Origin: Promethearchaeota archaeon
Lineage (GTDB): Archaea > Asgardarchaeota > Lokiarchaeia > Sigyniarchaeales > SOKP01
Direction of reading: 5' to 3'
NCBI GenBank assembly: GCA_030603385.1
Contig: JAUVXW010000009.1
Location: forward strand, 62,958 to 126,957
DNA: 64,000 nt
The position numbers were made by a program, and so were the translations under genes. The notes beneath the pieces were generated by a model that was given only the letters and a program-made list of their open reading frames with translations, was not told the DNA's origin and did no database searches. How positions within the stretch are numbered: the first letter of the stretch is position 1; each line of letters starts with the position of its first letter. Shown one piece after another: positions 15,843-40,020 of the stretch.

Positions 15843-16295
15843 TTATTTAATTTCGATTTTTAAATGTTTACATTCCTTCAACTTCCTTTTTAAGAAATTC
15901 AAGAATTTTTTATATGATTTTAAACCATATCTTTTTTTAATCCAGTTGGTCATTGCTATGAAAATCATATCTACATCTTCCAATGTCTCTTTTAAAATTT
16001 GATTATCTAACTCCTTTTCTGTCACTTCTGTAAATCCTAATTCCTCCAATTTTTCTATTGACGGATCATCTAAAAATTTCTGCTTTAATTTTTCTTGTTT
16101 ATTTTCTTGTTTATTTTCTTGTTCATGTTCCCACATTTTAAAAGCATGAGTTATCTCGTTATTTTTATTTAACGCAGTCCTATTTGTTTCATGATAATAT
16201 TGTTCAAATAATATTTCTTGTCTTTTTGTATATCTTTGTCTACTACCTTGAGAATAATACCATTTCTTTATTCTCCTCCAAAATTCATTACTCAT
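15843..16295 (-). CDS. Hypothetical protein with ETGK-like module
   Basis: YYHETNRTALNKNNEITHAFKMW. Confidence 0.7.
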   Translation of the reverse strand: MSNEFWRRIKKWYYSQGSRQRYTKRQEILFEQYYHETNRTALNKNNEITHAFKMWEHEQENKQENKQEKLKQKFLDDPSIEKLEELGFTEVTEKELDNQILKETLEDVDMIFIAMTNWIKKRYGLKSYKKFLNFLKRKLKECKHLKIEIK

Positions 16296-16301
16296 TTTAT
16301 A

Positions 16302-17033
16302 TCACGTCCTGTTTTGTTTAATTTTCTTTTGATATTGTAACCATTGTTTAAATTGTACAGTGATTTTATTACCCCAAATAACATGTTGACCTGTCTCGGC
16401 TTCAAATCTTTTTATTAATTTTGGATATTTATTTTGAAACTCATTTACACTCATTTTTATTCCTTTTTGTTTCTTTAAATTTTGCGGATTTAAAAGAACA
16501 TGAAACATAAAATTCAATTTATTTTTTTCCCCGTCCTTTTCATCTTCTTTATCATATTCATAAGTTTCATAAACTCCATATATCCTTCCGTACAATTTAC
16601 ATAAGGAAATAAATTTATCAAAGTTCTGTCTAATATGAATAATTTTTTCGAGATTATTAGTGGCATAATCAATAATTTGAATGTAATTCTTAAACTCTTT
16701 ATGTAGCTTTAATTTTAATAAAATTTCAATGAACTTTGCTTTATATTTAAAAGTGAATTTATTATATTTGTCACGTTTACTCTCAATACATTCAGCAAAA
16801 TTATACCATAAATTATTATCAAGATATTTTATAAAACCTCCACCAAGTTTTAATGCACCTCTCATCGAAATAAGCACATATTTACCATCCTCTGTATCTG
16901 GTGTTTCTGGTAAAGGTATATTGCTTTTAATGAATTCTTCAGCAGTAAGCTCTATATAATCTTTCTCATTCCCCTTTTCAAACATTTTTCTTACCATTTC
17001 TTTTAATCTCCTTCTTTTTATTAGGAATTCCAT
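16302..17033 (-). CDS. Hypothetical protein with C-terminal ETGK-like module (possible internal start 16454)
   Basis: MSVNEFQNKYPKLIKRFEAETGQHVIWGNKITVQFKQW. Confidence 0.7.
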   Translation of the reverse strand: MEFLIKRRRLKEMVRKMFEKGNEKDYIELTAEEFIKSNIPLPETPDTEDGKYVLISMRGALKLGGGFIKYLDNNLWYNFAECIESKRDKYNKFTFKYKAKFIEILLKLKLHKEFKNYIQIIDYATNNLEKIIHIRQNFDKFISLCKLYGRIYGVYETYEYDKEDEKDGEKNKLNFMFHVLLNPQNLKKQKGIKMSVNEFQNKYPKLIKRFEAETGQHVIWGNKITVQFKQWLQYQKKIKQNRT

Positions 17034-17493
17034 AACGAAATTTATCTGTATGTTTAATATATGTGAGTCTCTTTTCGATGAGTTTTATGATGGATTTTGT
17101 GCTTTCATCATCAACGTGTTCTCTAATAAATTGATAATACTCATCCCAAGTTTCCAATTTGTGATATTTCATAAATCTCGCAATATCTAATAAAGGTAAA
17201 TCTGTACCTCTTCCTTTTTCAAACAAATAAAAAATACAGAAAATATTGTTTTTCCAACCATAATCAACCTCTTCTATGCCTAAATCTTTAAAAACTCTCT
17301 TTATGAACGGCACCAAATTAATAATTTCTTTCTCATATCTCAGAACTTTATGTGCTGGCTTTTTCACAAATTTCGTTAAAAAATCCAAATAACCTGTATA
17401 TGTATAACAACGTACAACTCCACATCTTAAATATCCTTCATCTACTTTTCCTTTTTCTAAGACATTCTTATATTTATTGCTCAATTTTTTCAA
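16978..17493 (-). CDS. Hypothetical protein
   Basis: 171-aa ORF co-oriented in the operon. Confidence 0.65.
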   Translation of the reverse strand: MKKLSNKYKNVLEKGKVDEGYLRCGVVRCYTYTGYLDFLTKFVKKPAHKVLRYEKEIINLVPFIKRVFKDLGIEEVDYGWKNNIFCIFYLFEKGRGTDLPLLDIARFMKYHKLETWDEYYQFIREHVDDESTKSIIKLIEKRLTYIKHTDKFRYGIPNKKKEIKRNGKKNV

Positions 17494-17505
17494 CTCTTTT
17501 TTTTA

Positions 17506-18201
17506 TTACTTCGCATAACCTTTATGCTCTTTATATACATTCCCTCTATAATGTGTTCTCTTACACCACGAGCAGTAATAAGGTTGAGTCATAGGTGGCG
17601 GTGGTCTATTAGTCCTTTCAATATTATCTACCCATTCATTTAAGTTATGGATTTCATCATTACTAAGTAATCCTTTTTCTATTTTTTCATTCAATATACC
17701 TCGAAAAAGATATGTTTGTTTTTGTATTTGTTCGTATGATAATTCTTTACAACCTAAATTTGCTGAAACAAAAATACCCATAGCTTCACTATCAGAGAGT
17801 TCCATTATTTTACAACTAATTTTTTCACGACCTAACTTTTTCGTGGCAGTAAACCTTCGATACCCCTCCACAAGAGAATATTTTTCACTATTATTAATTG
17901 GTCTAATAATAACAGGAGTTATCAAACCTACATCAAGTATAGACATTAATAAAGCTCCATCATTTTCGTCATTAGACCATCTATCTCGAAATGAGATAGA
18001 ATCATCAATTTTAATATTCTTAATGTCAATCTCTTTTATATTCCATTTCATTTGTTTTATCTCTTTTTGCTTATATCTCCATTGTTTAAATTGTCCAGAT
18101 AGCTTACCACCTATAATGGCATTTTTGCCTGTCTCTTTTTTAAACAATAAAGTCGATTTATATATTTTTGGATATTTATTTTTGAATACTTCTGTGTTCA
18201 T
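17506..18201 (-). CDS. ParB/Srx-like domain protein with N-terminal ETGK-like module and C-terminal CxxC-H motif
   Basis: LLMSILDVGLITPVIIR...YSLVEGYRRFTA...SANL. Confidence 0.85.
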   Translation of the reverse strand: MNTEVFKNKYPKIYKSTLLFKKETGKNAIIGGKLSGQFKQWRYKQKEIKQMKWNIKEIDIKNIKIDDSISFRDRWSNDENDGALLMSILDVGLITPVIIRPINNSEKYSLVEGYRRFTATKKLGREKISCKIMELSDSEAMGIFVSANLGCKELSYEQIQKQTYLFRGILNEKIEKGLLSNDEIHNLNEWVDNIERTNRPPPPMTQPYYCSWCKRTHYRGNVYKEHKGYAK

Positions 18202-18362
18202 TATCTAACCTCCTTGTTATTTGAAATAAATTTTTTAATTGATAATTTCTTTAAAAATTCATACTCGTCATAAGGGCTATGTGGTACATAATATAGAGAG
18301 TCATAATTCAGGAGCTTATGAGTTTCAGCATCTACAGGTAGTTTTTTAATTTCCTTACTCAT
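18201..18362 (-). CDS. 53-aa hypothetical protein (not in ORF track)
   Basis: MSKEIKKLPVDAETHKLL...; overlaps both neighbours at start and stop; reads through junction repeat F. Confidence 0.5.
   Translation of the reverse strand: MSKEIKKLPVDAETHKLLNYDSLYYVPHSPYDEYEFLKKLSIKKFISNNKEVR
18208..18234 (-). repeat. Gene-junction repeat copy F
   Basis: AAAATTTATTTCAAATAACAAGGAGGT. Confidence 0.75.
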
Positions 18363-18672
18363 CTTTTTTAACCTCCTTGATAAGTTCTGATAATTTATGT
18401 TGACATTTTTTAAACTCCCATTGTATCATATTATATACTTCCTCTGCTGTATCCAATTCTCGAACTAATTCACCAATTTCACCGATAATTGACATTTTTT
18501 TACTGACTTTAATTATAGCAGGTGAAAACATTCCTTGCTCTTTTTTTACCTTCTCCACATGTTTAATTATATTATCCAATGAGTTTCTTATCTGGCTCAT
18601 ATTCCTAAAATTCAACATATGTCTCAATTTTTTCAAATTATCCAATAAATTTTCTGTAAAGGGTTCTGGCAT
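18355..18672 (-). CDS. Hypothetical helical protein
   Basis: 105 aa, abuts the upstream stop. Confidence 0.65.
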   Translation of the reverse strand: MPEPFTENLLDNLKKLRHMLNFRNMSQIRNSLDNIIKHVEKVKKEQGMFSPAIIKVSKKMSIIGEIGELVRELDTAEEVYNMIQWEFKKCQHKLSELIKEVKKDE

Positions 18673-20679
18673 TTACTCATCCTCCAATTCAAATTCAATT
18701 TCATCATCTATTTCCTCATCTTCAATTTCCTCTAATTCCTCTTCTTCAAGTTCAATATCTTCAATTTCCTCATCACCCAATTCTTCGAAATCAATTGGTT
18801 CCTCAAGTATTTCAATAAGTTCGTCTTGTAATTCTGTCATAAAATTATCAAAATTAGTTTCAATAAAACTTTCTCTTCTCTCTATAAATTCCTCTTTAAG
18901 TTCATTATATTCTGGAATTTGCTTAATAATTCTTTTACATATAACCTTTTGCTTTCTTACCAGTTTTCTAAGTCCCTCAGTTTGTTCATTTGATAATATA
19001 CGCAATTGTCTATTCTGCTTTTCAATAATACTCCAAGGATCTTTAACAATATTATCACCCTTATATCCCTTATTTTTCCTTAGAATTTTTTTGAAAATAT
19101 CATATTTACCCTTTGTATATATTAGATTTTGGAGCTCCTCATTAGTCTCACGCATTTTATTAACTCTATCTCTTATAAGCTCATACCAATCTGTCGTAAA
19201 TCGCACGTTCCTCTCATCTAAATACTCATTAAATTCTCTATATGCTTCTTCTCCAATTTCTCCCTGTTTTTCAGTTATTTTATCTGATAATTCCCTCAAT
19301 TTATTATTGACAATATTTATTCTTCTCTCTATTTCCTTGTCTATATTATCTATAAATTCTGGTCTTGAAACATTGAGAGTATTTAATGTTGGCTCATAAT
19401 AATCTGGTTTTTCATATCTACTCAAGTTCCATGGTCTTTCTGGATCTTCTAAAATTCCAATTAAATAATCAATAAAATCTCTGGCTTTATTTTGCTCATA
19501 ATCTTCTTCTTCTCTTTTTGTTAACAAACTGTTTATCTCTGCCCGCCTCTCTAAACAGGAATTAATCCAATTATTATATTTTTCTCTTTCATCTTCAGTT
19601 ATATCAAACTCTAAAACCTTATTTCTTACCTTTTCTTTCTGTTTTTCTTTCTGTGTTTCTGTAACATCATAATCTTCGGCTATTTCATCAAACTCCACCC
19701 CAATATGCTCTAAAAAGTCAGGATTTATCCCTACACTTTCACAGGGAAATCTTTCCCTAATGTTGAAATAAATCATAAGTCCGTCTATATCTAAATCATG
19801 TTGAACAAATACATAAAAATTTCTAACTTTTGAAAATGGTATTAAATATTTAATTACTGCACTTACAGGATAACCACCTAAAGAAATACCATAAAATCCC
19901 TCGTTATATCCCCTATTAATTAGTTCTCGCATTGTAAAATCAATAAGTATCGTTTTTTCACAGATAATTAAGAAAAAAGGTACATTTTCAAATTCCTCCA
20001 ATCTCTCCAATTCAATCAGATTTTTCTTTGTTAAAATAATTTCTACCATATTCATATCAAATATATTCGCAGTACCCTTAATATCAACTCCGAGATAATC
20101 TGGAACATAACCCCAATACTCAAAACCTAAAAATTCAAAGAGTTTATTATAATATTTATCTACTGCTTGACCAATAGCTTTTTGTTGCTCTTCTTTAGTG
20201 CCTTTTAAATTTAATTTACCACCAAAACTTTTCCTGACCTTATAGAATACCTCCCGTTTATCTGTTTTTTGGAGGTTCAAATCTAATTGCTTAAAAATCC
20301 ATCTCTTATTTAATATCTTAACTACTTCTTTTTTTTCTTTAATTCTTGGAAATTCTTTGACTAAATACACTATATCTTTATATTTTGTTTTTGGTATTTG
20401 TTTCCTATAATAATCATCCAATTTTTCAACAACATGTTCTCTAACATTTGTCCTCCATATAGGTATATGAATAGCACGACAAATATGATGATATTTTGGT
20501 TTTCTCATTAACCAAACTTCAAAATCCCCCAGATGTACTCCATTATCTTTAAATGCCTGTTTACCTGTTTCGGCATAATATTCCTTTATCGATTCGTCTC
20601 CATACTTTTCTATAAATTCATTATAAAGCATTCGAACAACAGGCGAGTGAAATTTTTTTATTAAATCTTCTCGATTCAA
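18673..20679 (-). CDS. Spo11/topoisomerase VI A-like protein with N-terminal ETGK-like module, coiled coil and acidic tail
   Basis: REVFY (catalytic-Tyr-like motif); Toprim motifs IICEK, GGYP, HDLDIDG. Confidence 0.78.
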   Translation of the reverse strand: MNREDLIKKFHSPVVRMLYNEFIEKYGDESIKEYYAETGKQAFKDNGVHLGDFEVWLMRKPKYHHICRAIHIPIWRTNVREHVVEKLDDYYRKQIPKTKYKDIVYLVKEFPRIKEKKEVVKILNKRWIFKQLDLNLQKTDKREVFYKVRKSFGGKLNLKGTKEEQQKAIGQAVDKYYNKLFEFLGFEYWGYVPDYLGVDIKGTANIFDMNMVEIILTKKNLIELERLEEFENVPFFLIICEKTILIDFTMRELINRGYNEGFYGISLGGYPVSAVIKYLIPFSKVRNFYVFVQHDLDIDGLMIYFNIRERFPCESVGINPDFLEHIGVEFDEIAEDYDVTETQKEKQKEKVRNKVLEFDITEDEREKYNNWINSCLERRAEINSLLTKREEEDYEQNKARDFIDYLIGILEDPERPWNLSRYEKPDYYEPTLNTLNVSRPEFIDNIDKEIERRINIVNNKLRELSDKITEKQGEIGEEAYREFNEYLDERNVRFTTDWYELIRDRVNKMRETNEELQNLIYTKGKYDIFKKILRKNKGYKGDNIVKDPWSIIEKQNRQLRILSNEQTEGLRKLVRKQKVICKRIIKQIPEYNELKEEFIERRESFIETNFDNFMTELQDELIEILEEPIDFEELGDEEIEDIELEEEELEEIEDEEIDDEIEFELEDE

Positions 20680-21173
20680 TCATCTTCATCTCCTATTCCC
20701 CTATCTTTACCACCAAAAATATATGGCGAGTATAATTCCTCTAAATCCTGATAACTTAAATCTTTTAAAGAATTATTACCTTTCCATCGATTTTTCCAAA
20801 ATATTTCTAATTCGTCAAGTGTATTAAATTCAGCACCTTCTAAATAATCTGGATTTTGTCTTACCCAATGAAACATATATATTGGAATTAGTTCTGGATA
20901 TTCCTTAACAAGTTTTAAATATTTTATAAAAAATTGGTTTGTTTTTTTCTCAGTTAATCCAAGAATTTTTATCATGGATTTTACATTATACGATGAATCA
21001 GGTTTATGATTATCCGATATATCTTTAAACAATGGTTCTAATTCCTTTTTTAACCAATTTAAATTATTAGCATCTTCTCCTTCCAAATTACAGAATTCAA
21101 TAGCCCATTCAAATTCTTTATATTTTTTCATACATTTTAAAATTATTTCCTTAAACATCAAATGTTCACTCAT
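20676..21173 (-). CDS. Hypothetical protein coupled to the Spo11-like gene
   Basis: 165 aa, 4-nt overlap. Confidence 0.7.
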   Translation of the reverse strand: MSEHLMFKEIILKCMKKYKEFEWAIEFCNLEGEDANNLNWLKKELEPLFKDISDNHKPDSSYNVKSMIKILGLTEKKTNQFFIKYLKLVKEYPELIPIYMFHWVRQNPDYLEGAEFNTLDELEIFWKNRWKGNNSLKDLSYQDLEELYSPYIFGGKDRGIGDEDD

Positions 21174-21322
21174 TATTCTCTGACCTCCTCGTTTTTTACT
21201 TTAATATCAAGATAATTTCTAACAAGTTCAGCAACCAGCTTTTTTATGGATTTGTTTTCTTTTGAGGCTCTTGTTTTCAATAGAATGTGAAGTTCGTCAT
21301 CTATAATAATTTGTTTAACCAT
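21173..21322 (-). CDS. Ribbon-helix-helix (Arc/CopG-like) regulator, 49 aa (not in ORF track)
   Basis: MVKQIIIDDELHILLKTRASKENKSIKKLVAELVRNYL; first gene of the leftward operon. Confidence 0.75.
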   Translation of the reverse strand: MVKQIIIDDELHILLKTRASKENKSIKKLVAELVRNYLDIKVKNEEVRE

Positions 21323-22626
21323 AATATAATCTCTCTTTCATTTTTTTCGATTTATCGATTAATCTATTAATTAAAATAAATATTGGATTATTTATAAATC
21401 TATTTTTCACATACAAACGATATATCCTGTTTGATAATAACATTAGCAATAATTAGATTCATGAGTTGAATAATTAGACAGATGTGATATTTTGAGTTTC
21501 TGGGAATTTTAGATATTTGACTTGTAGTATGGTTTAAACTCAATTATAATACATGAAATTGTGTTTTGAATATTCCAAACATGTTTTAAATCTTTCTACT
21601 CTATAAATATGGCATAATTGGAATATCGAAAATTTTTCGATCTTATATTTTTATATTTTATTAGTTTGATGACATCTATATATCCAATTAATCTACAACT
21701 CCAATTTGATATATAGCATTTAATAGATTAAAAAAAATCCAATGTACACCAATTCTATTGGTGTATTAATATATACTATAATTGAAAATTAGAGTGTATG
21801 TATATGTACCTTGGAATATTTAAGTTTAAAAATTTTTTTGAAAAAAATTTAATTTTTTTACAAAAAATAGATAAATATTGAAAAATTTTTAATGTTCTCT
21901 TAAATTGTTTAAAAGATATTATAGAGATTGAATGATTTTCCGTTATATATTAGATATAATATAAAATCTTTAAAATAAATAAATAATTATATCATTTTTT
22001 TCAAATAATAGGAATTTTTTACTTTATAATAATTATTATTTTATTGGATTGTTTAATATATAAAGTTAAAGTATAATGATTATGGTTTCTGGCTATTTGT
22101 TTGATGTACTTATTATTTTCAATACTAATTTCTAAAACTTGGGTAATTTTAGTATTAAAAAAATCCAAAAATAACACGAAATTAGTTAATTATAATTAAA
22201 ATCATAATTATCTTTGATTTAAATTAGATTAAATCCAATAAATTTAATAGAAATAGAATGAAATTAAGTTATTTTTAAAGATAATTGATTTTGAATAGTG
22301 GAAATGATAGAATCATTAGAAAATTTATTTTGATTATAACAGGAGATATAATGTATAAATTTTTTATTAGATGATTTATTCTGAATACGATTAGAAAGTT
22401 TCTACTCAATATAGATATGTTTTATATTTAAATCAATCGTGATTTTTTTTAAAATTCTGCTTCTAAATACCAAATTCAGAGTTTAATTTTTTCTCCATAA
22501 TGAGAAATGAAGAAATATTCAAATATTCTATATATAGGAAAAAAAAAAAAATAAAAAAAAATAATAAAAAAAAATAAAATATATATAATATAATATTGAG
22601 TTTTTTCTAATTATCTCATTATGAAT
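21323..22626. other. 1.3-kb AT-rich non-coding block, candidate replication origin
   Basis: No ORF of 60 aa or more; several palindromes; A-tract at 22539-22579; directly downstream of the helicase gene. Confidence 0.4.
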
Positions 22627-24405
22627 TTAAAAAGCTTCAAATTGAAAATCATCGTCTGTTTCAAAAAGCTCATTAGCATCTATTTTCTCAGAGTCCTCTA
22701 ATTTAATATCATCAAAAATTTCTACTTGTTTTTCTGTTTCAAATTCACTTTTTCCATATTCCTCGTTTTCCTCTCTTGCATCTTCAAATGCCCTTCTTAC
22801 TCTTATTGATTGTATGTTATCATCACTTTTAAAATCTTCGTTATAACTTATTCCTCTATATTTATAACCACTACTTTCTGAATGTGTTTTCTTGCTAACT
22901 GAAATAACTCTTACTTTTGGATATATCGATTTTAAGGAACGCGTACATTTTGATTTAGAAATTTCTGGGAGTCCTCGTTTCTTCCTCCAATTACATATCA
23001 TCTCATAAAATAATTGACAATCAATTGAACCAGTTTCATTATCTGAACAATATCTTTCAGTATATTGTGCTACTGGATTCCTCTCAAGTGCCCAAGTCAC
23101 CCTAACATACTCTTCAGTTTGTCTAAATCCCTTTCTCTCCTCTAATCTTAATATGGCTATCAAACATTTATTTAATAATCCACTTAATTCTTCTTGTGTA
23201 GAAATTTTATCTCCAAAATCTCGAATTATTTCTTTTATTCCAAATATATTATAACATGGTATTAATATCCATCTTCTATGAAATCCTTCTGATACATATT
23301 TATCGTCTGGTAATATATTACAACCAAATAAATTTTTTGTAATATTCCACCATGTAACATCATCTTGAACTCCTTTCATTTCTCCCGATAATATCTTATT
23401 AGTAACAATTTCATTAAATGTATCTGTATATTTTATAGGTTTATCTAAAAGATCATCTCCAATATTTACCATTTTATCTCTTAAGTTATGTATTTGAAAA
23501 GTTCTACCAAGTTCATGTAATTTTTTTTTACAAATATGTTCCTTTCCAATAAAATTTGTTATAATCTCTATAAGTGTTGTTTTACCTGAACTGGGAGGTC
23601 CAAACAGCATAAAAGCCTTTTGAAATTTAATTGTTGGTATTAAAAAATAACCAATCATTTCATATACATCGTTTTTATACCTTTTTCCAACAATTAAACT
23701 AATTTCCTTATCAATTAAAGGACATTTAGCTTTTGGATTGAATTCAACAGGTAATTGAGTAAATGTTCTAATTGGTTTTTCTATCTTTTTATGAGATATG
23801 AATTGCCATTTTTTACCCCTTCTTATTAATAAACCATTTAACACATTTATAATATTTTCATTGTAGTGAAATGTATCTAAATGTACATATGTTTCATCTC
23901 GAATTAGATCATAAACATTATTACGTGTTGATATGGTATGTCTGAAACCTTCAATTCCTTTGGCAATTTTATTAATCTCCTGTTTTATCTTTGTTTTTGG
24001 TATTGTTCCTCTTTGATAATATCCCTTATTATATAAACAGAATTCATCAGTTTCTCGAAGTGTTAATAATTTATCTCCATGTTTATCTACAATTTGTTTT
24101 TCTATATTTCTCTCAATTTGTTCAGATGTTTCTGTTTGTTTTTCTGCTTCAATTTGAACCTTAATTGTATGTTCTAAATTAACAAAATAATTTAATAATT
24201 TTTGAGCTGTATTGTTAGTTAAAAAATTTAATTCCGAAAGATATTGATTAAGTTCATTTTTAGGTTTTTTAATTTCAATATGTTGTTTTTTATTCCAATT
24301 AAAGTAACATATAAAATTCTTATCATGAAATATATTAACTCCCTTTTTATCAGGGTCAATTACTAACACTAAATTATCATTAACTTTTAATCTTCTTCTT
24401 ACCAT
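22627..24405 (-). CDS. Phage/plasmid D5/P4-family SF3 helicase
   Basis: INVLNG (D5_N-like), Walker A GPPSSGKTT, Walker B NIGDD, motif C FGCN, GFHRRW. Confidence 0.9.
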   Translation of the reverse strand: MVRRRLKVNDNLVLVIDPDKKGVNIFHDKNFICYFNWNKKQHIEIKKPKNELNQYLSELNFLTNNTAQKLLNYFVNLEHTIKVQIEAEKQTETSEQIERNIEKQIVDKHGDKLLTLRETDEFCLYNKGYYQRGTIPKTKIKQEINKIAKGIEGFRHTISTRNNVYDLIRDETYVHLDTFHYNENIINVLNGLLIRRGKKWQFISHKKIEKPIRTFTQLPVEFNPKAKCPLIDKEISLIVGKRYKNDVYEMIGYFLIPTIKFQKAFMLFGPPSSGKTTLIEIITNFIGKEHICKKKLHELGRTFQIHNLRDKMVNIGDDLLDKPIKYTDTFNEIVTNKILSGEMKGVQDDVTWWNITKNLFGCNILPDDKYVSEGFHRRWILIPCYNIFGIKEIIRDFGDKISTQEELSGLLNKCLIAILRLEERKGFRQTEEYVRVTWALERNPVAQYTERYCSDNETGSIDCQLFYEMICNWRKKRGLPEISKSKCTRSLKSIYPKVRVISVSKKTHSESSGYKYRGISYNEDFKSDDNIQSIRVRRAFEDAREENEEYGKSEFETEKQVEIFDDIKLEDSEKIDANELFETDDDFQFEAF

Positions 24406-24419
24406 TATTTAACCTCTTA

Positions 24420-26083: not shown

Positions 26084-26674
26084 ATGAAGATATTGATAAC
26101 AGAAATCCCAGAAAAACGTCCAGATTTAATTTTGATGTTTGAAAGAGAAACTGGTAAGAATGCTATGTATAAGAAGAGTGGAAAAATAACTAAACAATTT
26201 AAATATTGGCTTCGACAAAAAATAAAATATGAAAACCTTCAATGTGACATCTGTAGCAGAAATGACTTTAAAAATAAATATTCGTTGGCTCGTCATTTAA
26301 ACTGGCATAATAAAGAATATCGAGAAAATCATAGTGGAGAAAACCATCCTCATTTTGGTAAACGTGGCAAAGAAACTCAGTATTGTAAGGGTGATAATGC
26401 TGGTTATCATGCTATACATAACTGGGTTGATAAATATATGCCAAAGACAGGTATTTGTGAGATATGCGGTAAGCCAGAAAATTATAGAGATTTAGGTCCA
26501 TTAGAAAAATCCAACAAGACTGGGAAATTAATTAGAGATATCAATAATTTTCAGTGGGCTCATAGATATTGCCACAATAAATATGATAAAGATAACAATA
26601 TAATACATGAGGGTTCACCTAATTTAAAAAAAGAAATAAATTTAATTAGTTTATCATCTGCCAAAATCGAATGA
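26084..26674 (+). CDS. ETGK module + C2H2 zinc finger + NUMOD3-like + HNH-like endonuclease
   Basis: FERETGKNA; CDIC...HLNWH; SGENHPHFGK; YHAIHNWV...CEICG...N...CHNKYD. Confidence 0.72.
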   Translation: MKILITEIPEKRPDLILMFERETGKNAMYKKSGKITKQFKYWLRQKIKYENLQCDICSRNDFKNKYSLARHLNWHNKEYRENHSGENHPHFGKRGKETQYCKGDNAGYHAIHNWVDKYMPKTGICEICGKPENYRDLGPLEKSNKTGKLIRDINNFQWAHRYCHNKYDKDNNIIHEGSPNLKKEINLISLSSAKIE

Positions 26675-26678
26675 TATT

Positions 26679-27697: not shown

Positions 27698-28198
27698 TTA
27701 ATTCACCATATCTTTATTTATTTTATATGTTTTCTGAGAATATCTTTCAAGCATACCTTTTTCTATGTAATACCTGATTATACTAGCAAAATCTCTTTTA
27801 ATATTACCATCCTCGGTTATAGGTGGATGCACCTTATCCTTATATATCCCTATTATTATGTTCTTAGAAAAGTAGGTGTGTTCATTCAAGAAATTTAAAA
27901 AAAACTCATGAATATGATTATTCGAATCAAAATTTAATTTTATTTCTTTGTGACGCCATTTATGTGAAGTTAATCCATGTTTACTATCAAATTCTCTATT
28001 ACAAATATTACAACGATTATTCGGATTTGAATTTATTTTTTGACCTTTATATGTTATTATTATATTTCTTTCTTGTGATAGCCAATTTATAAACGCAGTT
28101 GTAAATTTATTAGATCGAAATGGAGGGCTACGTGGAGTTTCTTTTCTGAAATCTGAAATTAAATTTGAATGCACTTGCTTAAATCTATTTATATCCAT
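27698..28198 (-). CDS. ETGK-like module + C2H2 finger + wHTH-like C-terminus
   Basis: DFRKETPRS...KFTTAFINW; CNICNREFDSKHGLTSHKWRH; KGMLER...YKI. Confidence 0.7.
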   Translation of the reverse strand: MDINRFKQVHSNLISDFRKETPRSPPFRSNKFTTAFINWLSQERNIIITYKGQKINSNPNNRCNICNREFDSKHGLTSHKWRHKEIKLNFDSNNHIHEFFLNFLNEHTYFSKNIIIGIYKDKVHPPITEDGNIKRDFASIIRYYIEKGMLERYSQKTYKINKDMVN

Positions 28199-30680: not shown

Positions 30681-31217
30681 ATGACAAAAAAAGCAAAAGC
30701 AAAACAGGTAGTAGTAGAAAAGAAAGAGCAAATGATTGTAGACGATTTATCAATTGGAGATATAGTACCTGATTTACATGGTGTAGATGTAGAAATCACA
30801 GATGACTTAATTTCGGATATGAAAACTTTTGAATCTGAAGGAAAAACAAAAGCAATTTGGCGAAATAAAATCACTGGAATGTTTTTATTTTGGAGAATGA
30901 ATAAAGACAAGCCAAAGAAAGAGAAAAAGGTGAAGAAAGCTAAGCCAAAAGTCGTTGAAGAAGAAATCGAAGAAGAACTTGAAGACATTGAAGTTGAATA
31001 TGATGACGAAGAAGAAATCGATGAGATGGAAGAAATAGAAGAAGCAGTAGACGAAGTTAACAAATTAGATGAAGCAATAGAAATAGAAGCAGAAGAAGAA
31101 ATAGACGAATTAGAACTTATCGATGAAGCATATAAAGAGAAATTTAGTGTCCAAAAAGTTAATCGAAACGCAAAGAAATACAAAGCATTTGCTAAGAAGT
31201 ATAGAGAGTCAGAATAA
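30681..31217 (+). CDS. ETGK-like module protein with Lys-rich linker and highly acidic tail
   Basis: FESEGKTKAIWRNKITGMFLFW; E/D-rich C-terminal half; N-terminus resembles 39607-40020. Confidence 0.75.
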   Translation: MTKKAKAKQVVVEKKEQMIVDDLSIGDIVPDLHGVDVEITDDLISDMKTFESEGKTKAIWRNKITGMFLFWRMNKDKPKKEKKVKKAKPKVVEEEIEEELEDIEVEYDDEEEIDEMEEIEEAVDEVNKLDEAIEIEAEEEIDELELIDEAYKEKFSVQKVNRNAKKYKAFAKKYRESE

Positions 31218-31329: not shown

Positions 31330-31372
31330 TTTAGAAATTTATATTAATATTAATAATCAAAATTTAATTTGA

Positions 31373-31615: not shown

Positions 31616-31657
31616 AGAATTTTAATTCTTTATAAAACAAAAAAGAAAAGAGGAAAA

Positions 31658-32962: not shown

Positions 32963-33264
32963 TAATAGAAAAAATGACTATGCAATTTATTAGTAGCATA
33001 TCGAGAGAAAATCAAATTTTTAAGGGCAGATCATATAAAATTGGAAGTTTTGTTAATGGAGAACCTGTAATTGAGCATAAAATTCCAATTCCAGATTCAG
33101 ATATTCTCTGTGATTGGTGCAATGCTAAAATACTAACAGAGAAAATAAAGGTAGTTGTTAATTTTGACATTTTAACAGGAAAATCAAGTATATCGTATGT
33201 TATTTGTGATAATTGTAAAGAAAACAAGTTTAATGATATAATCGAAATTAAGAGTGTAAAATAA
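32959..33264 (+). CDS. Zinc-finger hypothetical protein
   Basis: CDWC...ICDNC. Confidence 0.65.
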   Translation: MIIEKMTMQFISSISRENQIFKGRSYKIGSFVNGEPVIEHKIPIPDSDILCDWCNAKILTEKIKVVVNFDILTGKSSISYVICDNCKENKFNDIIEIKSVK

Positions 33265-33292
33265 AAAAAATCATGCTAAACCTTAAATCATG

Positions 33293-33399
33293 TGAGCTGT
33301 TGGTATACCTGGATTTTAAGAGTATTCAATTCGATTATTCTGATCAATGTCTTTTGGATTTCACCCTCAAACTCTTTCTAATCAATTGCCAACAGCTCA
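33293..33399. other. Long hairpin closed by an 11-bp perfect inverted repeat (candidate ncRNA or MITE)
   Basis: TGAGCTGTTGG (33293-33303) / CCAACAGCTCA (33389-33399); inner AAGAGT/ACTCTT. Confidence 0.5.
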
Positions 33400-33709
33400 A
33401 TTTATTCAATTTATTTATGGAGTGAGGGAAAATGACAATAAACAAATTTCTTAGGGGTTTAATAAAAGAGATGAGTGAATTTATAGATGGTGAGAATCCT
33501 AAGAATTTAAGAGTTTTCAAATTTGATAAAGATGGTAAGCAAATAGAAGTAATAAATGAATTAGAATTATGGAGGTGAGAGAAGTTGTTTGATATAAAAT
33601 TTATTACAATTAAAATAATGAAAATATTGAAGAAACAAAAGTTTCTCAGACATTTAGGTCCATTACAAATAGAAACGTTAGAAGAAGATGTTTTCGAATT
33701 GTTAGAAGA

Positions 33710-33907
33710 ATGGGAAAAAGTAACGAAGGAGGATTAAAAATGTCTGATAAATTTATGAAAATGTTGTTAATGATCTTACTTATTGGTTTTATAGCAATGT
33801 CATTATCGTATATTTTTATTGTAAACCAGATTTTAATCGATATGAGAAATGAAGTAAACGAACTTATAGAAATCGTAAATGGTACAATTGGAGCTAATTT
33901 AAAATGA
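33710..33907 (+). CDS. Small single-TM protein (likely start at MSDKF)
   Basis: One TM; SD GGAGG before the internal ATG. Confidence 0.6.
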   Translation: MGKSNEGGLKMSDKFMKMLLMILLIGFIAMSLSYIFIVNQILIDMRNEVNELIEIVNGTIGANLK

Positions 33908-34070
33908 AGGAATATGAGAGTTTAATGCATAAGGTATATGAGAATCACCAAAAAATAGAATTATATACTTTAAACAATAATACATATAGCAAAACTATGA
34001 TTAATAGATTGAAAATAGAAAATACCAAGCTAAAAGACAAATTAAGTGAATTAAAGAGGGATAATAAAAA

Positions 34071-34292
34071 ATGAATAGAGATCAATTTAATATTTTAGTT
34101 AATGCAGGAATTATAAATGCTAAGGATGAGAAAAAACCAAAAGGAAAGCCTAAACTTACAATAGGAGATATAATGATAAAACTCGAGTTCTTTAATAGAC
34201 ATGGTATTATCAAAGCTTTAAACATCCAAGATAGTGGTATTAATGCTTGTAAAGAATATACTCATATTTCTTTTAAAATACCAAAAGAATGA
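34071..34292 (+). CDS. Hypothetical protein
   Basis: 73 aa. Confidence 0.55.
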   Translation: MNRDQFNILVNAGIINAKDEKKPKGKPKLTIGDIMIKLEFFNRHGIIKALNIQDSGINACKEYTHISFKIPKE

Positions 34293-34299
34293 TAATCCC

Positions 34300-34366
34300 T
34301 AATCCATTTTATCATTTAATTAAGTCTAATGAACACTACATACATCTAAAATCCAAATATTTAAAT
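34300..34366 (+). promoter_or_regulatory. Duplicated promoter-like module, copy 2
   Basis: Matches 31261-31329; upstream of an RHH gene. Confidence 0.6.
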
Positions 34367-34423
34367 ATTTTTCAAAATATATTAATTATATTAATTAAAT
34401 TAATTTTTATATGAATAAGACTT

Positions 34424-34588
34424 ATGACAAATATTATAACGATAACGATGGATGATGAGATAATCAAGAATCTCGATAAGATAAGAGAATCATCAAATAT
34501 ATCACGTAGCAAATTAATCCGAAGCATTTTGACTAATTTCTGTAATGATAACGAATTAATTAAAAAGGTGTTAAAAGAAATTGAGTAA
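34424..34588 (+). CDS. CopG/RHH regulator, 54 aa (not in ORF track)
   Basis: MTNIITITMDDEIIKNLDKIRESSNISRSKLIRSIL. Confidence 0.8.
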   Translation: MTNIITITMDDEIIKNLDKIRESSNISRSKLIRSILTNFCNDNELIKKVLKEIE

Positions 34589-34598
34589 AAATAGAAAA

Positions 34599-34754
34599 AT
34601 GGAAAAAATATTTAAGGTTTATGTTTGGAAATGTTCTAATTGTAATAAACAAGTTGGATATAATGAGTTAATACATGGTGAATGTCCTTTTTGTAAAAGT
34701 AGAGAAATTGTGAGTGTGCCAGAATTCCTGAGCACCAATAAAAACAAAATTTAA
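34599..34754 (+). CDS. 51-aa zinc-ribbon protein (not in ORF track)
   Basis: WKCSNC...ECPFCKS. Confidence 0.6.
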   Translation: MEKIFKVYVWKCSNCNKQVGYNELIHGECPFCKSREIVSVPEFLSTNKNKI

Positions 34755-34772
34755 ATAAAAAAGGTTTAAAAT

Positions 34773-36785
34773 ATGAGTGAAAATGATATATTTAGAGAGA
34801 AAAAACGAATTGGAGCAATAATACTTTCTATATTATTTGTAACAGCGGGGATAACAGCGGTAATATTTGGAATATCATTTATACGAACAGATGATAAATA
34901 TAATGACATATCTGGTGATTACGATGATTTATATGGCGAATATGAGACATTATTAAATGATTTCAATGAACTTGAAGATGACTATTCTATTTTAACAGGA
35001 GAACATGTTGAATTGGAAAACGATTATAATGCTTTAGTAATTGAATTGGCAGATATGACTGCTGAATTGGAGGCTTTAGATAATAATTTAGTTGCTATGA
35101 CCGCCGAAAGAGATGATTTATTAGATCAAGTAGATACTCTCAATGCTGAGATAACTAACCATTTAAACACTATTACTGGATTAAATAACCAAATATATAT
35201 TTTAGAAGCTGAGATAGATGTTCTTGAAGCACAAGCTGTAGTAGATGAACAAGCTATTGCTGATTTAAATGCTCAGATTGTTGATTTAAATGATGAGATA
35301 GCTGGTTATTTGTCTACTATTGCTGGATTACAAGCTACAATTGATGCAAATGTAATTACTATTAGTGGATTAGAAGCTGACTTAGCTAATATGACTACTT
35401 TAAGAGATAACTTACAAATTGATTTAGACGCACTTCAATTACAATACGATACTCTTGTTAGTGATAATATTTTACTTCAAGCAGAATACGATGCCCTTTT
35501 TAGTGCTTATAATACACTTATCGATTCTAATAATGCACTTCAAATTGCTTTTGATAGTCTAACAATTGATTACAATAATTTACAATCTACTTTTGATATG
35601 CTTCAAAGTTCTTATGATGCCCTTCAAATTGAATATGATAATCTCGAAGCTAATTATAATTCTCTTTCAGGTGATTACGATGATCTTTTAGTTAATTTTA
35701 ATACACTCCAAGTAACTTATGCTACCCTACTAAATGATTTCAATGTATTATTAAATGACTATGATATCCTTTCAAATGACCATATTGCTTTACAGAATGC
35801 TTTTGATACACTTCAAAATAATTTTGATTTACTTCAATCGAATTATGACGTTCTATTTAGTGACTATAATACACTGTCAGGATTATACGATGTACTTCAA
35901 AATGAATACGATATTCTTTCGAATACTTTTGATGCTCTAACAATGGCTTATGGATATATTACTGAAACTATAAGACAATCGATACTTCCAGTTCAATTTA
36001 GTATTTTTGCCGAAGCTGTTAGAAGATACTATACGCCAATTTATTTAGGAGGAAAAACAGGAAAAGATTATTGGTTAGGATATGCTGAATTTTGCCGAGA
36101 TATGGTATTACACGATACTTATCAATACAATGCCTTTACTGAAGTATCTGATGCTTTTTCTGATGCTTTAAAATTTGGAAGTGATACAATGTATTTAGCG
36201 TATGAAGCAATGTGGCTTAATTGGCAGTGGATGCCAAATTGGGAAGGTTGGAACTTAATTGGCGATGAACTTGTTGATATTGATACTTTAGTTGATTGGA
36301 CTATTAATGAGATTATTTGGGAATATGATTCTATTGTGACTGTTCTCCAAGAATCTCCAACTGATGATTACATTAAATTTCCTGTAGAAACAGCTTTTAG
36401 AGGAGCAGGAGACTGGGAAGACCAAGCAATATTTATGGCTGCTTACTTAGAATCCTGTGGATTTGAAACAACGATAGTAGTTCTTCATAGTTCAGAACCT
36501 GGTGACACAATGAATGGATTTTATAATTGTGTTCCTTTAGTACATATAGAAGATATTGTTGCTTTTGAGTTAGCATTTCCAGATTGTACTTTATGGAGTT
36601 TAGATGATGAATTTAGAACAGTAATAGATCCGTATTCAGGAGAAACATGGTGTTGGATTGGTACCGACTTAGACGTGTCTTTTGGTTCTGAACCATCTTG
36701 GCTTCAATTCTGGGATGACTATGGTTTTCTTCCAATTTCGGCTGGAACGTTTGCTCTCTGTGATATATATGGTGGTATTAGTTAA
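34773..36785 (+). CDS. Membrane-anchored long coiled-coil protein with degenerate transglutaminase-like head
   Basis: N-terminal TM, ~350 aa of heptads, then DYIKFPVET...GAGDWEDQAI...LES-x-GF. Confidence 0.8.
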   Translation: MSENDIFREKKRIGAIILSILFVTAGITAVIFGISFIRTDDKYNDISGDYDDLYGEYETLLNDFNELEDDYSILTGEHVELENDYNALVIELADMTAELEALDNNLVAMTAERDDLLDQVDTLNAEITNHLNTITGLNNQIYILEAEIDVLEAQAVVDEQAIADLNAQIVDLNDEIAGYLSTIAGLQATIDANVITISGLEADLANMTTLRDNLQIDLDALQLQYDTLVSDNILLQAEYDALFSAYNTLIDSNNALQIAFDSLTIDYNNLQSTFDMLQSSYDALQIEYDNLEANYNSLSGDYDDLLVNFNTLQVTYATLLNDFNVLLNDYDILSNDHIALQNAFDTLQNNFDLLQSNYDVLFSDYNTLSGLYDVLQNEYDILSNTFDALTMAYGYITETIRQSILPVQFSIFAEAVRRYYTPIYLGGKTGKDYWLGYAEFCRDMVLHDTYQYNAFTEVSDAFSDALKFGSDTMYLAYEAMWLNWQWMPNWEGWNLIGDELVDIDTLVDWTINEIIWEYDSIVTVLQESPTDDYIKFPVETAFRGAGDWEDQAIFMAAYLESCGFETTIVVLHSSEPGDTMNGFYNCVPLVHIEDIVAFELAFPDCTLWSLDDEFRTVIDPYSGETWCWIGTDLDVSFGSEPSWLQFWDDYGFLPISAGTFALCDIYGGIS

Positions 36786-36869
36786 AATTTAGGTGTAATT
36801 TATATTATGCCAACCTAATTAATTTTTTTTTTTGTAAAAATAGTCAAATTATTAAAATGTGGAATAAAA

Positions 36870-37133
36870 ATGTCCAAAACTGAAAAATTACAAAGAAATC
36901 CAATGTCATTAAAAGAACATATAATAGAAGTTTATTATGGAATTAAGTTAAAAATAGGTCATGCAAGTTTTAATAAATTTATGACCAAACAATTTAATTG
37001 GATTGTTGTTCAAGACTGCCAAGTTGAAGGCTGTAAAAATAAAGCCATAGGTTATAGTGGAACAAAGGAAGATGGCTCTAAATTCCTTCTTTGCCATAAA
37101 CATTGGTGTGAAATAGTATATAATGATGATTAA
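36870..37133 (+). CDS. Small zinc-finger protein
   Basis: CQVEGC...LCHKH. Confidence 0.6.
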   Translation: MSKTEKLQRNPMSLKEHIIEVYYGIKLKIGHASFNKFMTKQFNWIVVQDCQVEGCKNKAIGYSGTKEDGSKFLLCHKHWCEIVYNDD

Positions 37134-37135
37134 AA

Positions 37136-37327
37136 ATGAGAAAAAAAAGAATACAAAAAAAATTAGACAATTTATCTGAAAAAGAGAAATTGGTTGTTAA
37201 ATATTTTAGAGATTTCGCTAAAGAAAGAAAAGCATATCCAAGTGATATAGCTGAGTATTATGATTGGAAATTTTTAGAAACTCTTCAAATTTGTCAAAAT
37301 TTAGAAACGAAAGGGATATTATATTGA
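37136..37327 (+). CDS. Small winged-HTH protein
   Basis: YPSDIAEYYDW...ICQNLETKGIL. Confidence 0.65.
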   Translation: MRKKRIQKKLDNLSEKEKLVVKYFRDFAKERKAYPSDIAEYYDWKFLETLQICQNLETKGILY

Positions 37328-37343
37328 GGATGGTTAGTTAAAA

Positions 37344-37559
37344 ATGTACATTGAATATCAAGAGAAAATTGTATCAGAAGACGATACAATCCAAAAATTA
37401 GCTGTAATTCTTGGAAAATTAGAAATGAAAGCAATAATTAAACTTGTTGATGAAATAGAATTATCAAAAATTTTAGAGAAATATTTGTCGAAGAAAGAGC
37501 AAGATATTTATCACAGGAGCAAATATAAATTAAAAGAATTACTGATAAAAGAGGTGTAA
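37344..37559 (+). CDS. Hypothetical protein
   Basis: 71 aa. Confidence 0.55.
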   Translation: MYIEYQEKIVSEDDTIQKLAVILGKLEMKAIIKLVDEIELSKILEKYLSKKEQDIYHRSKYKLKELLIKEV

Positions 37560-37682
37560 AATGATAACCTTTTTTACTTAGTTGTCCAATTAATTAATTG
37601 TCAAAAATTTTTGGATTAATTTTATTCATTTCGAATAAGAAAAGCAAACAAAAAATAAATTTGATAAAAGGAGGTTAAAGAA

Positions 37683-38171
37683 ATGAAACGTAAATATATC
37701 TTAGGAATTTTGTTGATTTTATCAATGAGCTTTTTTGTTATACCCACTAAGGCTTACGAGGATACTGAATATTTGATTTTTGGGAGTGAATATTATGGAT
37801 TTGCTGATTACGGGGTAGAAATGAACGAAGGAGATAATTTAACTTGGAGTTTTGAAACGAGGCTGGAAGAGTTCGAAGTTTTAGTTAAAATAGGTGGTGA
37901 AGATGTTTCTGAGGGATTAGAATTCGATTCGGGAATTTGGATCGCACCCAGAACAGATACATTTTGGATTATTTTCATTAACTACGATTATCTATTACGA
38001 AGAGACGGTTATATTGATATTTATTTTGAAGTTAACGTAGAACCCGAACCAGAGCCAGAGCCTGAACCAGAAGACGATGATATTATTGGAATTGATTTAA
38101 TTCCCTTAATAACGATAATCAGCTTAGCAACAATAATTCCATTGATAATAATAACAAGAAAAAAGAAATAA
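37683..38171 (+). CDS. Secreted beta-sandwich (GOLD/emp24-like) protein with EP linker and C-terminal TM anchor
   Basis: Signal peptide, DTFWIIFINYD, (EP)n, TM+RKKK. Confidence 0.7.
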   Translation: MKRKYILGILLILSMSFFVIPTKAYEDTEYLIFGSEYYGFADYGVEMNEGDNLTWSFETRLEEFEVLVKIGGEDVSEGLEFDSGIWIAPRTDTFWIIFINYDYLLRRDGYIDIYFEVNVEPEPEPEPEPEDDDIIGIDLIPLITIISLATIIPLIIITRKKK

Positions 38172-38249
38172 AATCAAAATTAATTAGTTTTTTTATTGTA
38201 AGTGTGCTCTGGTATCCAGAACACCAATTAAAAATGAATAAAAGGTAGA

Positions 38250-38438
38250 ATGTCAGATTATACAAAAAGAAAAACACAAGACATTAGAAAATATAATATA
38301 ATTGGAAAGATATGCCATGAGCTTGACCATTTATATGATTATGCTTTAAAATTAATTCCAAAAAATATGACTCATGATTTAGGCTATAAAAAAGAGCTTT
38401 TGAAAGGAATAATAGAGGAGTTAATATTACAATTATAA
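38250..38438 (+). CDS. Hypothetical protein
   Basis: 62 aa. Confidence 0.5.
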   Translation: MSDYTKRKTQDIRKYNIIGKICHELDHLYDYALKLIPKNMTHDLGYKKELLKGIIEELILQL

Positions 38439-38624
38439 ATAAGGAGGTTAACGATAACGATTGAAGCCTGTTTAAAGTGCAGAATCATTCAAAAGAATAT
38501 TCAAGAAAACGAAATCAAGGAAGAGATTAAAGCTTTTTTAGAAGCACCAGAGAACTTTTATGTTAAATATAATCCGCAAACAGGATTCTACAAATTTGAG
38601 TTGATTATTTAAGCAATTCTAAAA

Positions 38625-38658
38625 TAAATTTATTTTAAATTACAGAATAAGGAGGTGA
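38625..38658 (+). repeat. Gene-junction repeat copy G
   Basis: TAAATTTATTTTAAATTACAGAATAAGGAGGTGA. Confidence 0.65.
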
Positions 38659-39581
38659 AAAATATGGATGAAGCAATTCTAATAATTGTTATTATTTCTA
38701 TTGTAGTGACTGTTACTATAAATTTAATAATATACATGTTTTTAAGAAATAAATTTCAGGCAATAGATATAATTAGAGATTCTGCTATTAAACTTGATAC
38801 AACGGTTTCAACAATTACTACCTTAAGTGGTAATCTTTTTAAGCAAATAGCTGGTTTGACAAAACTTCAATCAGAATTAAAATTAAATTTTCAAAGTTTC
38901 TATGATAAACTTATAATGAAACCATCTGTAAAAGGAAGGGTAGGAGAAGGAATTATCAAATTTATTTTGAGTAGTTTTCCCGAAAAATTATGGAAGGAAC
39001 AATATAAAATTTCTGGCTCTGGTGTAGTAGATTTCGCAATTTTTATGCCACCAGATGATAGAATATTACCAATGGATGCCAAATTTTCATTACCAGAAGA
39101 AGGAATAATAGATAAGGAGTTAGAAGAAGGAGAAATTGTGTTTTTAAATAAGGAACAGAGAAAAAAAGCCAATTCACAAGTAATCAAGAGAATGCGAGAG
39201 GTTACCAAATATATTAATCCATTAGAGGGAACAATGAATTTTGCTTTAATGTTTATCCCAGATTCAGTTTATTTAGCTTTAACAAATGAAACATTGAGTG
39301 AATTACAATCGAATAGAGTTATTCCCGTAAATACAAGTGGTTTAATAAGCACACTATTCTTAATAGAACGTCAATATGTTTCGATAAGAATAAGTAAAGC
39401 TGTGGAAAGATTAGAGGATATAAAATCCACAATGGAATATCAATTTATTAAAATCTCTAATACATTGAAAAAGGCAGAAACACAGGGAGAAAATTCAAAT
39501 AAGAATATTACAAATGCTATTCAGCAGATTAAAAAAGCAGAGAGTAAAATTTTGGTAAGTTTTGGTTTGTTAGAGGAATAA
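38655..39581 (+). CDS. rmuC: RmuC-family PD-(D/E)XK protein
   Basis: N-terminal TM, KGRVGE, EQY, VDFAI, PMDAKFS, KYINPLEGTMNFALMFIP. Confidence 0.85.
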   Translation: MKNMDEAILIIVIISIVVTVTINLIIYMFLRNKFQAIDIIRDSAIKLDTTVSTITTLSGNLFKQIAGLTKLQSELKLNFQSFYDKLIMKPSVKGRVGEGIIKFILSSFPEKLWKEQYKISGSGVVDFAIFMPPDDRILPMDAKFSLPEEGIIDKELEEGEIVFLNKEQRKKANSQVIKRMREVTKYINPLEGTMNFALMFIPDSVYLALTNETLSELQSNRVIPVNTSGLISTLFLIERQYVSIRISKAVERLEDIKSTMEYQFIKISNTLKKAETQGENSNKNITNAIQQIKKAESKILVSFGLLEE

Positions 39582-39606
39582 GAATAATTTAAAGGAGGGA
39601 TAAAAG

Positions 39607-40020
39607 GTGAGTGAACTTGATAATGTAAAGGTAGGAGATATAGTTTCAAATATGTATGTTTTAAAAGGAGAGATGACTCAAATTATGCTGGACAAGATGA
39701 AAATTTTTGAGGAACTTAATCTTGGAAAATATGTTGCTATTCACAATAACAAGGCAACCTGGAGTTTTGTGTTTTGGCTTTGGAATTTTGATGTAAGGAG
39801 ATTTGAATCAATAAAAGAGTATGATGAATTAATAAAAATGAACGATGAGATAATAAAAAGGTATGAGGAATTTACAAAAGAGAAAGTCGAATTAAAAAAA
39901 GATGACATACAAATTACCAAAACAAACTCTAAAAAACCTATTTATAGGGTATCTGATGATTATATGTCTTGGATTCATAATTATGATATAAAAAAAAGAG
40001 TAGATAAATTAAAAAGATAA
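39607..40020 (+). CDS. ETGK-like module protein, paralogue of 30681-31217
   Basis: DNVKVGDIV...MKIFEELNLGKYVAIHNNKATWSFVFW. Confidence 0.7.
   Translation: MSELDNVKVGDIVSNMYVLKGEMTQIMLDKMKIFEELNLGKYVAIHNNKATWSFVFWLWNFDVRRFESIKEYDELIKMNDEIIKRYEEFTKEKVELKKDDIQITKTNSKKPIYRVSDDYMSWIHNYDIKKRVDKLKR

Follow-up and report, generated by a model that had tools for sequence, protein, structure and literature searches.

The module and its carriers in the window

We analysed a stretch of 64,000 nucleotides (the window) from the genome of a Promethearchaeota archaeon of the class Lokiarchaeia (order Sigyniarchaeales; assembly GCA_030603385.1, contig JAUVXW010000009.1, positions 62,958 to 126,957 of the forward strand), which contains an integrated genetic element. 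Eight proteins of this element share a short segment with the residues ETGK and F-x2-W, which a sequence-only reading of the window had described as a portable protein module. All eight open reading frames (ORFs) were present as described, and each of the quoted peptide strings was found exactly in the ORF named for it. The copies are located as follows (lengths in amino acids, aa).

16107-16241, minus strand: module copy near the N-terminus of ORF 15843-16295 (150 aa), the weakest by sequence
16317-16448, minus strand: module copy at the C-terminus of ORF 16302-17033 (243 aa), whose partner domain is without assignment
18055-18186, minus strand: N-terminal module copy of the ParB-like protein 17506-18201
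20488-20622, minus strand: N-terminal segment of the 668-aa ORF 18673-20679, probably a diverged module copy
26096-26233, plus strand: N-terminal module copy of ORF 26084-26674, ahead of a C2H2-like finger and an HNH-like region
28058-28192, minus strand: N-terminal module copy of ORF 27698-28198, ahead of a C2H2-like finger
30786-30917, plus strand: module copy in ORF 30681-31217 (178 aa, C-terminal half acidic)
39664-39801, plus strand: module copy in ORF 39607-40020, strongly diverged; this ORF and 30681-31217 are paralogues

The module is N-terminal in seven of these proteins and C-terminal in one. Below, copies are named by the first position of their ORF. The core common to the eight aligned copies is L-x3-[FY]-E-x-E-T-G-K-x-A-I-W-x-G-K-x-T-x2-F-x2-W, and the family as a whole, which we defined by profile A2, shows the fuller core L-[MI]-x-x-[FY]-E-x-E-T-G-K-x-A-I-W-[R]-G-K-x-T-K-x-[FY]-x-x-W. 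With about 30-35 residues, the 'ETGK' segment forms an autonomous mini-domain, and free-standing versions of 45-60 aa exist. Column statistics computed over 141 module copies revealed that the strongly conserved positions are mostly structural, namely an aromatic core (F/Y19, W29, F/Y37 and W40) and helix caps (T23, G24 and T34). Exposed charged positions are also conserved (E20, E22, K25, R30, K32 and K35); among them, K25, R30, K32 and K35 surround a hairpin, which is basic, and E20 and E22 are kept in about 80% of the copies. The mean net charge of the module segments is +3, and no conserved Cys or His was found in the columns of the 141 copies. Since the module is nearly always terminal and joined to its partner via low-complexity, Lys-rich linkers, we read it as a tethered binding module, of which this arrangement is the anatomy.

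Regarding the partners, the sequence-only reading had stated that those which can be identified act on DNA. This was confirmed for the ParB-like protein, which matched ParB_N (PF02195, aa 55-145) with 45.5 bits against a cut-off of 26.3 (E 7.9e-12) and TIGR00180 of NCBIfam with E 4e-11. The HNH and C2H2 matches in the Pfam scan of the eight proteins were weak, including those of ORF 26084-26674 to zf-C2H2_4 and HNH, and four partners were left without assignment. The label 'Spo11-like' given to ORF 18673-20679 was not confirmed by sequence comparison, which may miss a remote relationship: no TP6A_N, Toprim or TopoVI-A/Spo11 match was obtained in Pfam, NCBIfam or PDB sequences; the single weak library match of this protein was to PADLOC DruC (E 5.9e-4). 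Two homologues of the 668-aa protein are without the module and begin at a position just past its end in the window protein. These module-less homologues are direct evidence that the module was added to the 668-aa protein. Together with the use of both termini they agree with the description of the module as portable. ORFs 30681-31217 and 39607-40020 also share a segment ahead of the module, D-x-[VL]-x-[IV]-G-D-I-V.

Support for the individual copies

Statistical support was evaluated against all six-frame ORFs of at least 40 aa (n=25,327) in the whole genome (3.89 Mb, 58 contigs, 30.8% G+C). Leave-one-out profiles, which the sequence-only reading had named as a check, recovered seven of the eight copies at E<=0.022: 16302 (E 3.6e-12), 26084 (1.2e-9), 17506 (5.8e-6), 30681 (1.8e-5), 15843 (2.5e-3), 27698 (1.3e-2) and 18673 (2.2e-2). 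The check failed for 39607, which was not recovered among these ORFs (E 39). A second profile was built exclusively from 125 proteins of other organisms (foreign-only profile). It found 26084 (E 1.4e-16), 16302 (2.2e-15), 30681 (8.3e-11), the ParB copy (2.1e-9) and 27698 (3.8e-5), gave a weak domain match to 15843 (E 0.095), and did not find 18673 and 39607 among the ORFs of the genome. When single sequences were aligned to the foreign profile with hhalign, the probabilities were 97.9% for ParB, 93.5% for 27698, 77.5% for 15843, 46.7% for 18673 and 11.9% for 39607. With reversed ORFs the best E was 0.31 and 3 for the two profiles.

Pairwise comparisons linked further copies. The segment of 39607 is 39% identical to 30681 over 57 aa including the module (BLASTP, E 1e-9), and its homologue P0151 (genome L020) has a near-canonical motif. 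The modules of 18673 and 26084 are reciprocal best non-self BLASTP matches in the genome (E 0.017 and 0.039). The 16302 and ParB copies are 50% identical (E 1.9e-10), and 30681 matched the module on the tail of RNA polymerase subunit A' (RpoA', see below) with a BLASTP E of 1e-3. For the 15843 copy no pairwise BLASTP match was obtained. By these comparisons of sequences, five copies are counted as secure (16302, ParB 17506, 26084, 27698 and 30681), 18673 and 39607 are supported by chains of homology and 15843 by the profile alone. The segment in 18673 is probably a diverged copy of the module. The pattern in eight proteins is thereby upheld, with 39607 entering only via its paralogue and its homologue.

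Predicted fold and search for a known domain

AlphaFold was run on one copy from the window (16302-17033) and on one foreign tandem pair. The AlphaFold2 model of the former, based on a 141-row alignment, reached a predicted local distance difference test score (pLDDT) of 87 and showed a short helix followed by a second one that ends in ETGK, then a hairpin of two strands (IW / K-x-T) and finally a long helix with F-x2-W. In the second run the natural tandem pair reproduced the unit twice (pLDDT 85-92 per unit), and the two units were joined by one continuous helix and had no fixed mutual orientation (predicted template modelling score, pTM, 0.44), so that packing of module against module is unsupported in this model. 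The module is thus predicted to be a helix / beta-hairpin / helix mini-fold around an aromatic core.

No model of Pfam, NCBIfam, PHROGs or PADLOC covered the module in the eight window proteins, even at E<=1. Searches of PDB sequences with the module profile gave a best E of 0.45, Foldseek against PDB with the module model a best E of 1.8, and the viral structures in BFVD a best E of 0.76. Among 48,161 chains compared by VIA-align the best Z was 3.5, and the DNA-binding domains of LysR, ModE and FOXP3 scored Z 2.6-3.2, within noise. A shape search of the ESM-Atlas mainly returned the same module in other Promethearchaeota proteins, together with one HTH_1 cluster at a template modelling score (TM) of 0.60, and a feature search of the same resource solely returned unnamed clusters, all below 0.81. 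Public annotation of 120 homologues reads 'response regulator' or 'hypothetical protein', the precomputed Pfam lists name partner domains only, and no description of the module was found in our literature searches. The module therefore appears to be undescribed and matches no named domain in any library tested, as the sequence-only reading had supposed.

Distribution in the host genome and among Lokiarchaeia

The genome holds 16 module copies, eight in the element and eight that a profile search detected elsewhere. The earlier statement that host ORFs flanking the element carry no copy is correct inside the window and does not extend to the genome. The following host carriers were identified.

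L002:8064-10874 (contig C4): RNA polymerase subunit A', module on the C-terminal tail
Two adjacent HisKA-REC proteins (Pfam)
A 957-aa protein with DUF4379 and CapR domains (Pfam)
A truncated copy of the N-terminus of the 957-aa protein, near the rpo genes
A GIFT-domain protein, a leucine-rich repeat (LRR) protein and a 261-aa protein (Pfam)

The canonical model of subunit A' stops about 93 residues before the stop codon of RpoA', and a Lys-rich linker and the module fill this extension. RpoA' ended in the module at 75 of the 80 loci that we fetched, including those of Promethearchaeum syntrophicum MK-D1, Lokiarchaeum ossiferum B35 and Harpocratesius repetitus; the five loci without a tail module are truncated or masked contigs and one Bathyarchaeota locus. 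Two ORFs lie upstream of RpoA' in the genome analysed here, one of 114 aa with another module copy (L002:5434-5778) and one of 523 aa with a weak match to LAGLIDADG_3 (L002:6115-7686).

All sampled congeners (24/24, 5-17 matches each) and all sampled genomes of the host's family (68/68, 4-24 matches each) contained the module, as did seven of seven genomes of a second family of the order. In one further family a single match was present in 6 of 28 genomes, all six in one genus, and the module was absent from about 200 other genomes of the phylum that were sampled. A search of 1.84 billion representative proteins yielded 561 clusters at E<=1e-3, of which 38 reached E<=1e-10, and individual proteins held as many as eight copies in tandem. 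The partner domains in these proteins were diverse and comprised NosD/beta-helix with a membrane span, LRR, a BBS-like propeller, a Cap4 nuclease with LRR and reverse transcriptase, and an Arf-like GTPase with REC; an ABC ATPase and a MoxR-type AAA+ ATPase were added by structure search, and sensor-kinase and membrane proteins were also among the carriers. Three module copies on two ORFs (94 aa and 265 aa) were found in the complete viral genome IMGVR_UViG_3300027901_000002 (L120/L121; 99,014 bp, direct terminal repeats), which suggests that viruses of Lokiarchaeia use the module as well.

Two architectures among the foreign proteins may be mentioned. In P0038 (415 aa) a single chain joins the module to an Arf-like small GTPase and a receiver domain, an unusual architecture for signalling. 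P0001, P0002, P0007, P0012 and P0033 carry 6-8 modules behind an unannotated N-terminal domain of about 150 aa; here the modules form compact pairs whose units share a helix, the last of one serving as the first of the next, with Lys/Ala/Pro-rich linkers between pairs.

By this distribution the module is specific to Loki-type Asgard archaea (Lokiarchaeia/Promethearchaeia), and it is a host-wide domain of Lokiarchaeia rather than an invention of the element. Its most conserved home is the end of a lysine-rich leash on RNA polymerase A'.

Enrichment in the integrated element

Eight of the 16 genomic copies fall in 24 kb, equivalent to 0.62% of the genome (binomial P 2.7e-14), and in other module-rich genomes the copies are scattered over many contigs. 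What is special to the element is the density of modules. That the module is a trait of this family of elements was considered and found no support, as about 52 kb of related fragments, all on short contigs, hold no copy.

Two further genes of the element, located outside the set of module carriers, were assigned as follows.

9350-10822, plus strand: tyrosine recombinase in the left part of the element (Phage_integrase PF00589, E 1.2e-5, just under the curated cut-off)
22627-24405, minus strand: D5-like primase-helicase without module (DUF5906 E 8.5e-10, D5_N E 4.7e-4)

In addition to ParB, the element encodes a GIY-YIG protein, an N6/N4 DNA methylase and a RmuC-like protein. A search for attachment sites found no direct repeat of at least 22 nt around the element. 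A recurring intergenic motif (TTTGAAATAAATTTAT-like, plus strand) is present at 13103-13131, 14172-14200, 15542-15570 and 18215-18243, just upstream of several minus-strand genes of the element, and is probably its promoter/leader consensus. Just left of the integrase, host ORF 7493-8851 contains 3-4 tandem repeats of about 135 nt (64-74% identical) at 8006-8479.

Putative ligand of the module

We are highly confident that the module exists and is portable, that it is predicted to fold independently, and that it occurs host-wide and is strongly enriched in the element. Beyond this we infer that it binds a ligand, most likely nucleic acid. In detail, the module might be a non-catalytic binding or 'addressing' module with nucleic acid or chromatin as its putative ligand, which it could bind in the way that homing endonucleases use their small accessory modules, and winged-helix domains their wings, to bind DNA. 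The Loki lineage attaches it at either end, sometimes in tandem, to hundreds of unrelated proteins. In the element the host module has been added to ParB, to a C2H2/HNH-like nuclease and a C2H2 protein, to one large protein of unassigned fold and to four small proteins, and the tagged proteins may thereby be brought to the same ligand that the tail of the host polymerase contacts. Taken as a whole and including the nucleic-acid ligand, we regard this statement as evenly poised between right and wrong.

We lean towards nucleic acid because of the C2H2/NUMOD3 relatives of the module, its ribbon-helix-helix (RHH) neighbour in HisKA-REC proteins, the basic hairpin, and the Lys/Ala/Pro-rich linkers by which modules are separated in tandem arrays. 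Specifically, the subtype found in the element, in which a K-[YF]-P-K-L-I helix precedes the module, is also present in foreign proteins where a C2H2 finger and NUMOD3 motifs come next, and this order of module, C2H2 and NUMOD3 is the layout of the DNA-binding arrays of homing endonucleases. In the HisKA-REC family the module is located directly before the RHH; such Arc-type RHH-HisKA-REC proteins of Lokiarchaeum have been described, and the segment before the RHH was not mentioned (PMC5847659). The weak likeness of the fold to the LysR/ModE winged helix (Z 2.6-3.1; TM 0.60) also counts towards nucleic acid, with scores in the noise range.

Several observations weigh against this proposal. The structural likeness to winged helices does not rise above noise even at the best Z of 3.5. 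Many carriers have no link to DNA, among them LRR proteins, ABC ATPases, MoxR-type AAA+ ATPases, BBS-like propellers, GIFT-domain proteins and the cytoplasmic tails of membrane proteins. The conserved acidic residues E20 and E22 would be unusual for a surface that contacts DNA, and the richness in lysine is partly due to a genome of 31% G+C. Furthermore, the short related contigs noted above carry homologues of the primase-helicase or the 668-aa protein and no module; its use on eight proteins is therefore a peculiarity of this one element, and the module need not function in every protein.

Comparison with known systems

The module can be likened to NUMOD, to the wing of winged-helix domains and to the C-terminal domain of the bacterial RNA polymerase alpha subunit, and by the tests run it appears to be a member of none of them. 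NUMOD modules (NUMOD1 PF07453, NUMOD3 PF07460 and NUMOD4 PF07463) resemble it in being very small, in their position beside nuclease domains or zinc fingers and in being shuffled among mobile-element proteins, and relatives of the element's subtype carry C2H2 and NUMOD3 directly after the module. However, none of the NUMOD models matched the module in sequence, the NUMOD3 of these relatives lies downstream of it (aa 79-119), and the window proteins are without a NUMOD match. Unlike NUMOD, it is also located on core host proteins including RNA polymerase, and on proteins without a role in DNA processes.

In bacteria the C-terminal domain of the alpha subunit is a small folded domain on a flexible linker. 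Both it and the module are tethered to RNA polymerase and could contact DNA, regulators or both, although the resemblance is one of analogy only. The module is located on A' (at the split point inside the Rpb1 homologue) and is a predicted helix / hairpin / helix unit, whereas the alpha domain was absent among the listed matches of both fold searches and is not spread over hundreds of proteins.

With winged helix-turn-helix domains (LysR/ModE, HTH_1 PF00126, and excisionase-type wings) the module shares the order helix, helix, beta-hairpin, helix, and the weak matches span the whole model. The scores are in the range of noise, however, no sequence similarity was detected, and the module is about half the size and lacks the first helix of the winged helix. 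C2H2 zinc fingers likewise show a hairpin followed by a helix and a conserved aromatic residue before the helix, and two proteins of the element have the module beside a real C2H2 finger. The module differs from these fingers in lacking Cys/His ligands, in its additional N-terminal helix and in a Trp/Phe core that takes the place of the metal, and no similarity was found in any search. The idea that it derives from the neighbouring C2H2 finger by loss of the metal was considered and is not claimed.

Alternative explanations

We give nucleic-acid binding an even chance and protein docking a distinctly smaller one, and what is left would fall to a structural or localisation role without ligand. 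Docking is the main rival, though in our judgement less likely than not. Here the module would be a protein-protein docking domain that binds a host hub or pairs with itself, and tagged proteins, among them ParB and the nucleases of the element and the RHH-HisKA-REC regulators, would be recruited to RNA polymerase via the module on the A' tail, or would compete with this tail. The extreme diversity of the partners is reminiscent of eukaryotic adaptor domains, and some of these partners are without a role on DNA; the conserved acidic and aromatic surface residues, the presence of the same module on the polymerase and on transcription-factor-like proteins, and the free-standing versions would also fit. 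On the other hand, the model of the tandem pair (pTM 0.44) shows no hint of self-association, no candidate hub was identified, and relatives of the element's subtype hold the module in arrays of DNA-binding motifs. A more far-reaching picture, which we consider rather improbable, is that one hub (chromatin or the polymerase), maybe by pairing of modules, gathers the A' leash and hundreds of signalling, membrane and scaffold proteins, and that the element has hijacked this network by tagging eight replication, partition and nuclease proteins to travel with the host transcription machinery.

It is less probable still, and in our view doubtful, that the module has no specific ligand and serves as a stable cap or folding nucleus on disordered Lys-rich linkers, or as a tag for localisation, turnover or solubility. 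Such a role would be in line with the structural nature of the most conserved positions (T23, G24, T34, F19, F37 and W40, core aromatics and helix caps) and with the usual position of the module at protein termini beside low-complexity linkers. Its class-wide conservation on RpoA' and the repeated independent fusions nevertheless argue for a selectable activity, and exposed charged positions (E20, E22, K25 and K32) are conserved as well.

The sequence-only reading had viewed the module as a private modular system of the element, a tag that addresses its proteins to a cis-acting site such as the intergenic repeats. The crowding of eight copies into 24 kb, their absence from the host genes that flank the element in the window, and the recurring intergenic motif upstream of several element genes did suggest this. 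As stated it is already largely refuted and very unlikely, since the module is host-wide: it is present on core host proteins in every sampled family genome and on RpoA' across the class, and its carriers include HisKA-REC, GIFT, LRR, ABC, AAA+ and membrane proteins. Moreover, fragments of related elements are without module, and the copies in the element do not form one tight clade, with 30681 matching the RpoA' tail as well as its own paralogue. Finally, a chance or compositional likeness of short Lys-rich segments in an A+T-rich genome, to which the shortness of the segments and the failure of two of the eight in the foreign-profile search might point, is refuted for at least five copies by E down to 1e-16 against the genome ORFs while reversed ORFs give nothing better than 0.31, by the confidently predicted fold and by the 561 matching clusters worldwide.

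Implications

The window contributes the enrichment of the module in a mobile element, the evidence that it was added to proteins, and its connection with C2H2/NUMOD3 arrays. With eight tags derived from the host, the element would represent an unusually clear case of an addressing device of the host being adopted. The small size of the isolated module suits it to direct binding assays and nuclear magnetic resonance (NMR) spectroscopy, and cultures of two carrier species exist. Few cultured organisms are as closely related to eukaryotes as the Lokiarchaeia, and a domain that they alone place on RNA polymerase, two-component regulators, Arf-like GTPases, LRR and BBS-like proteins and proteins of mobile elements would offer a new handle on the organisation of transcription and on protein targeting in this lineage.

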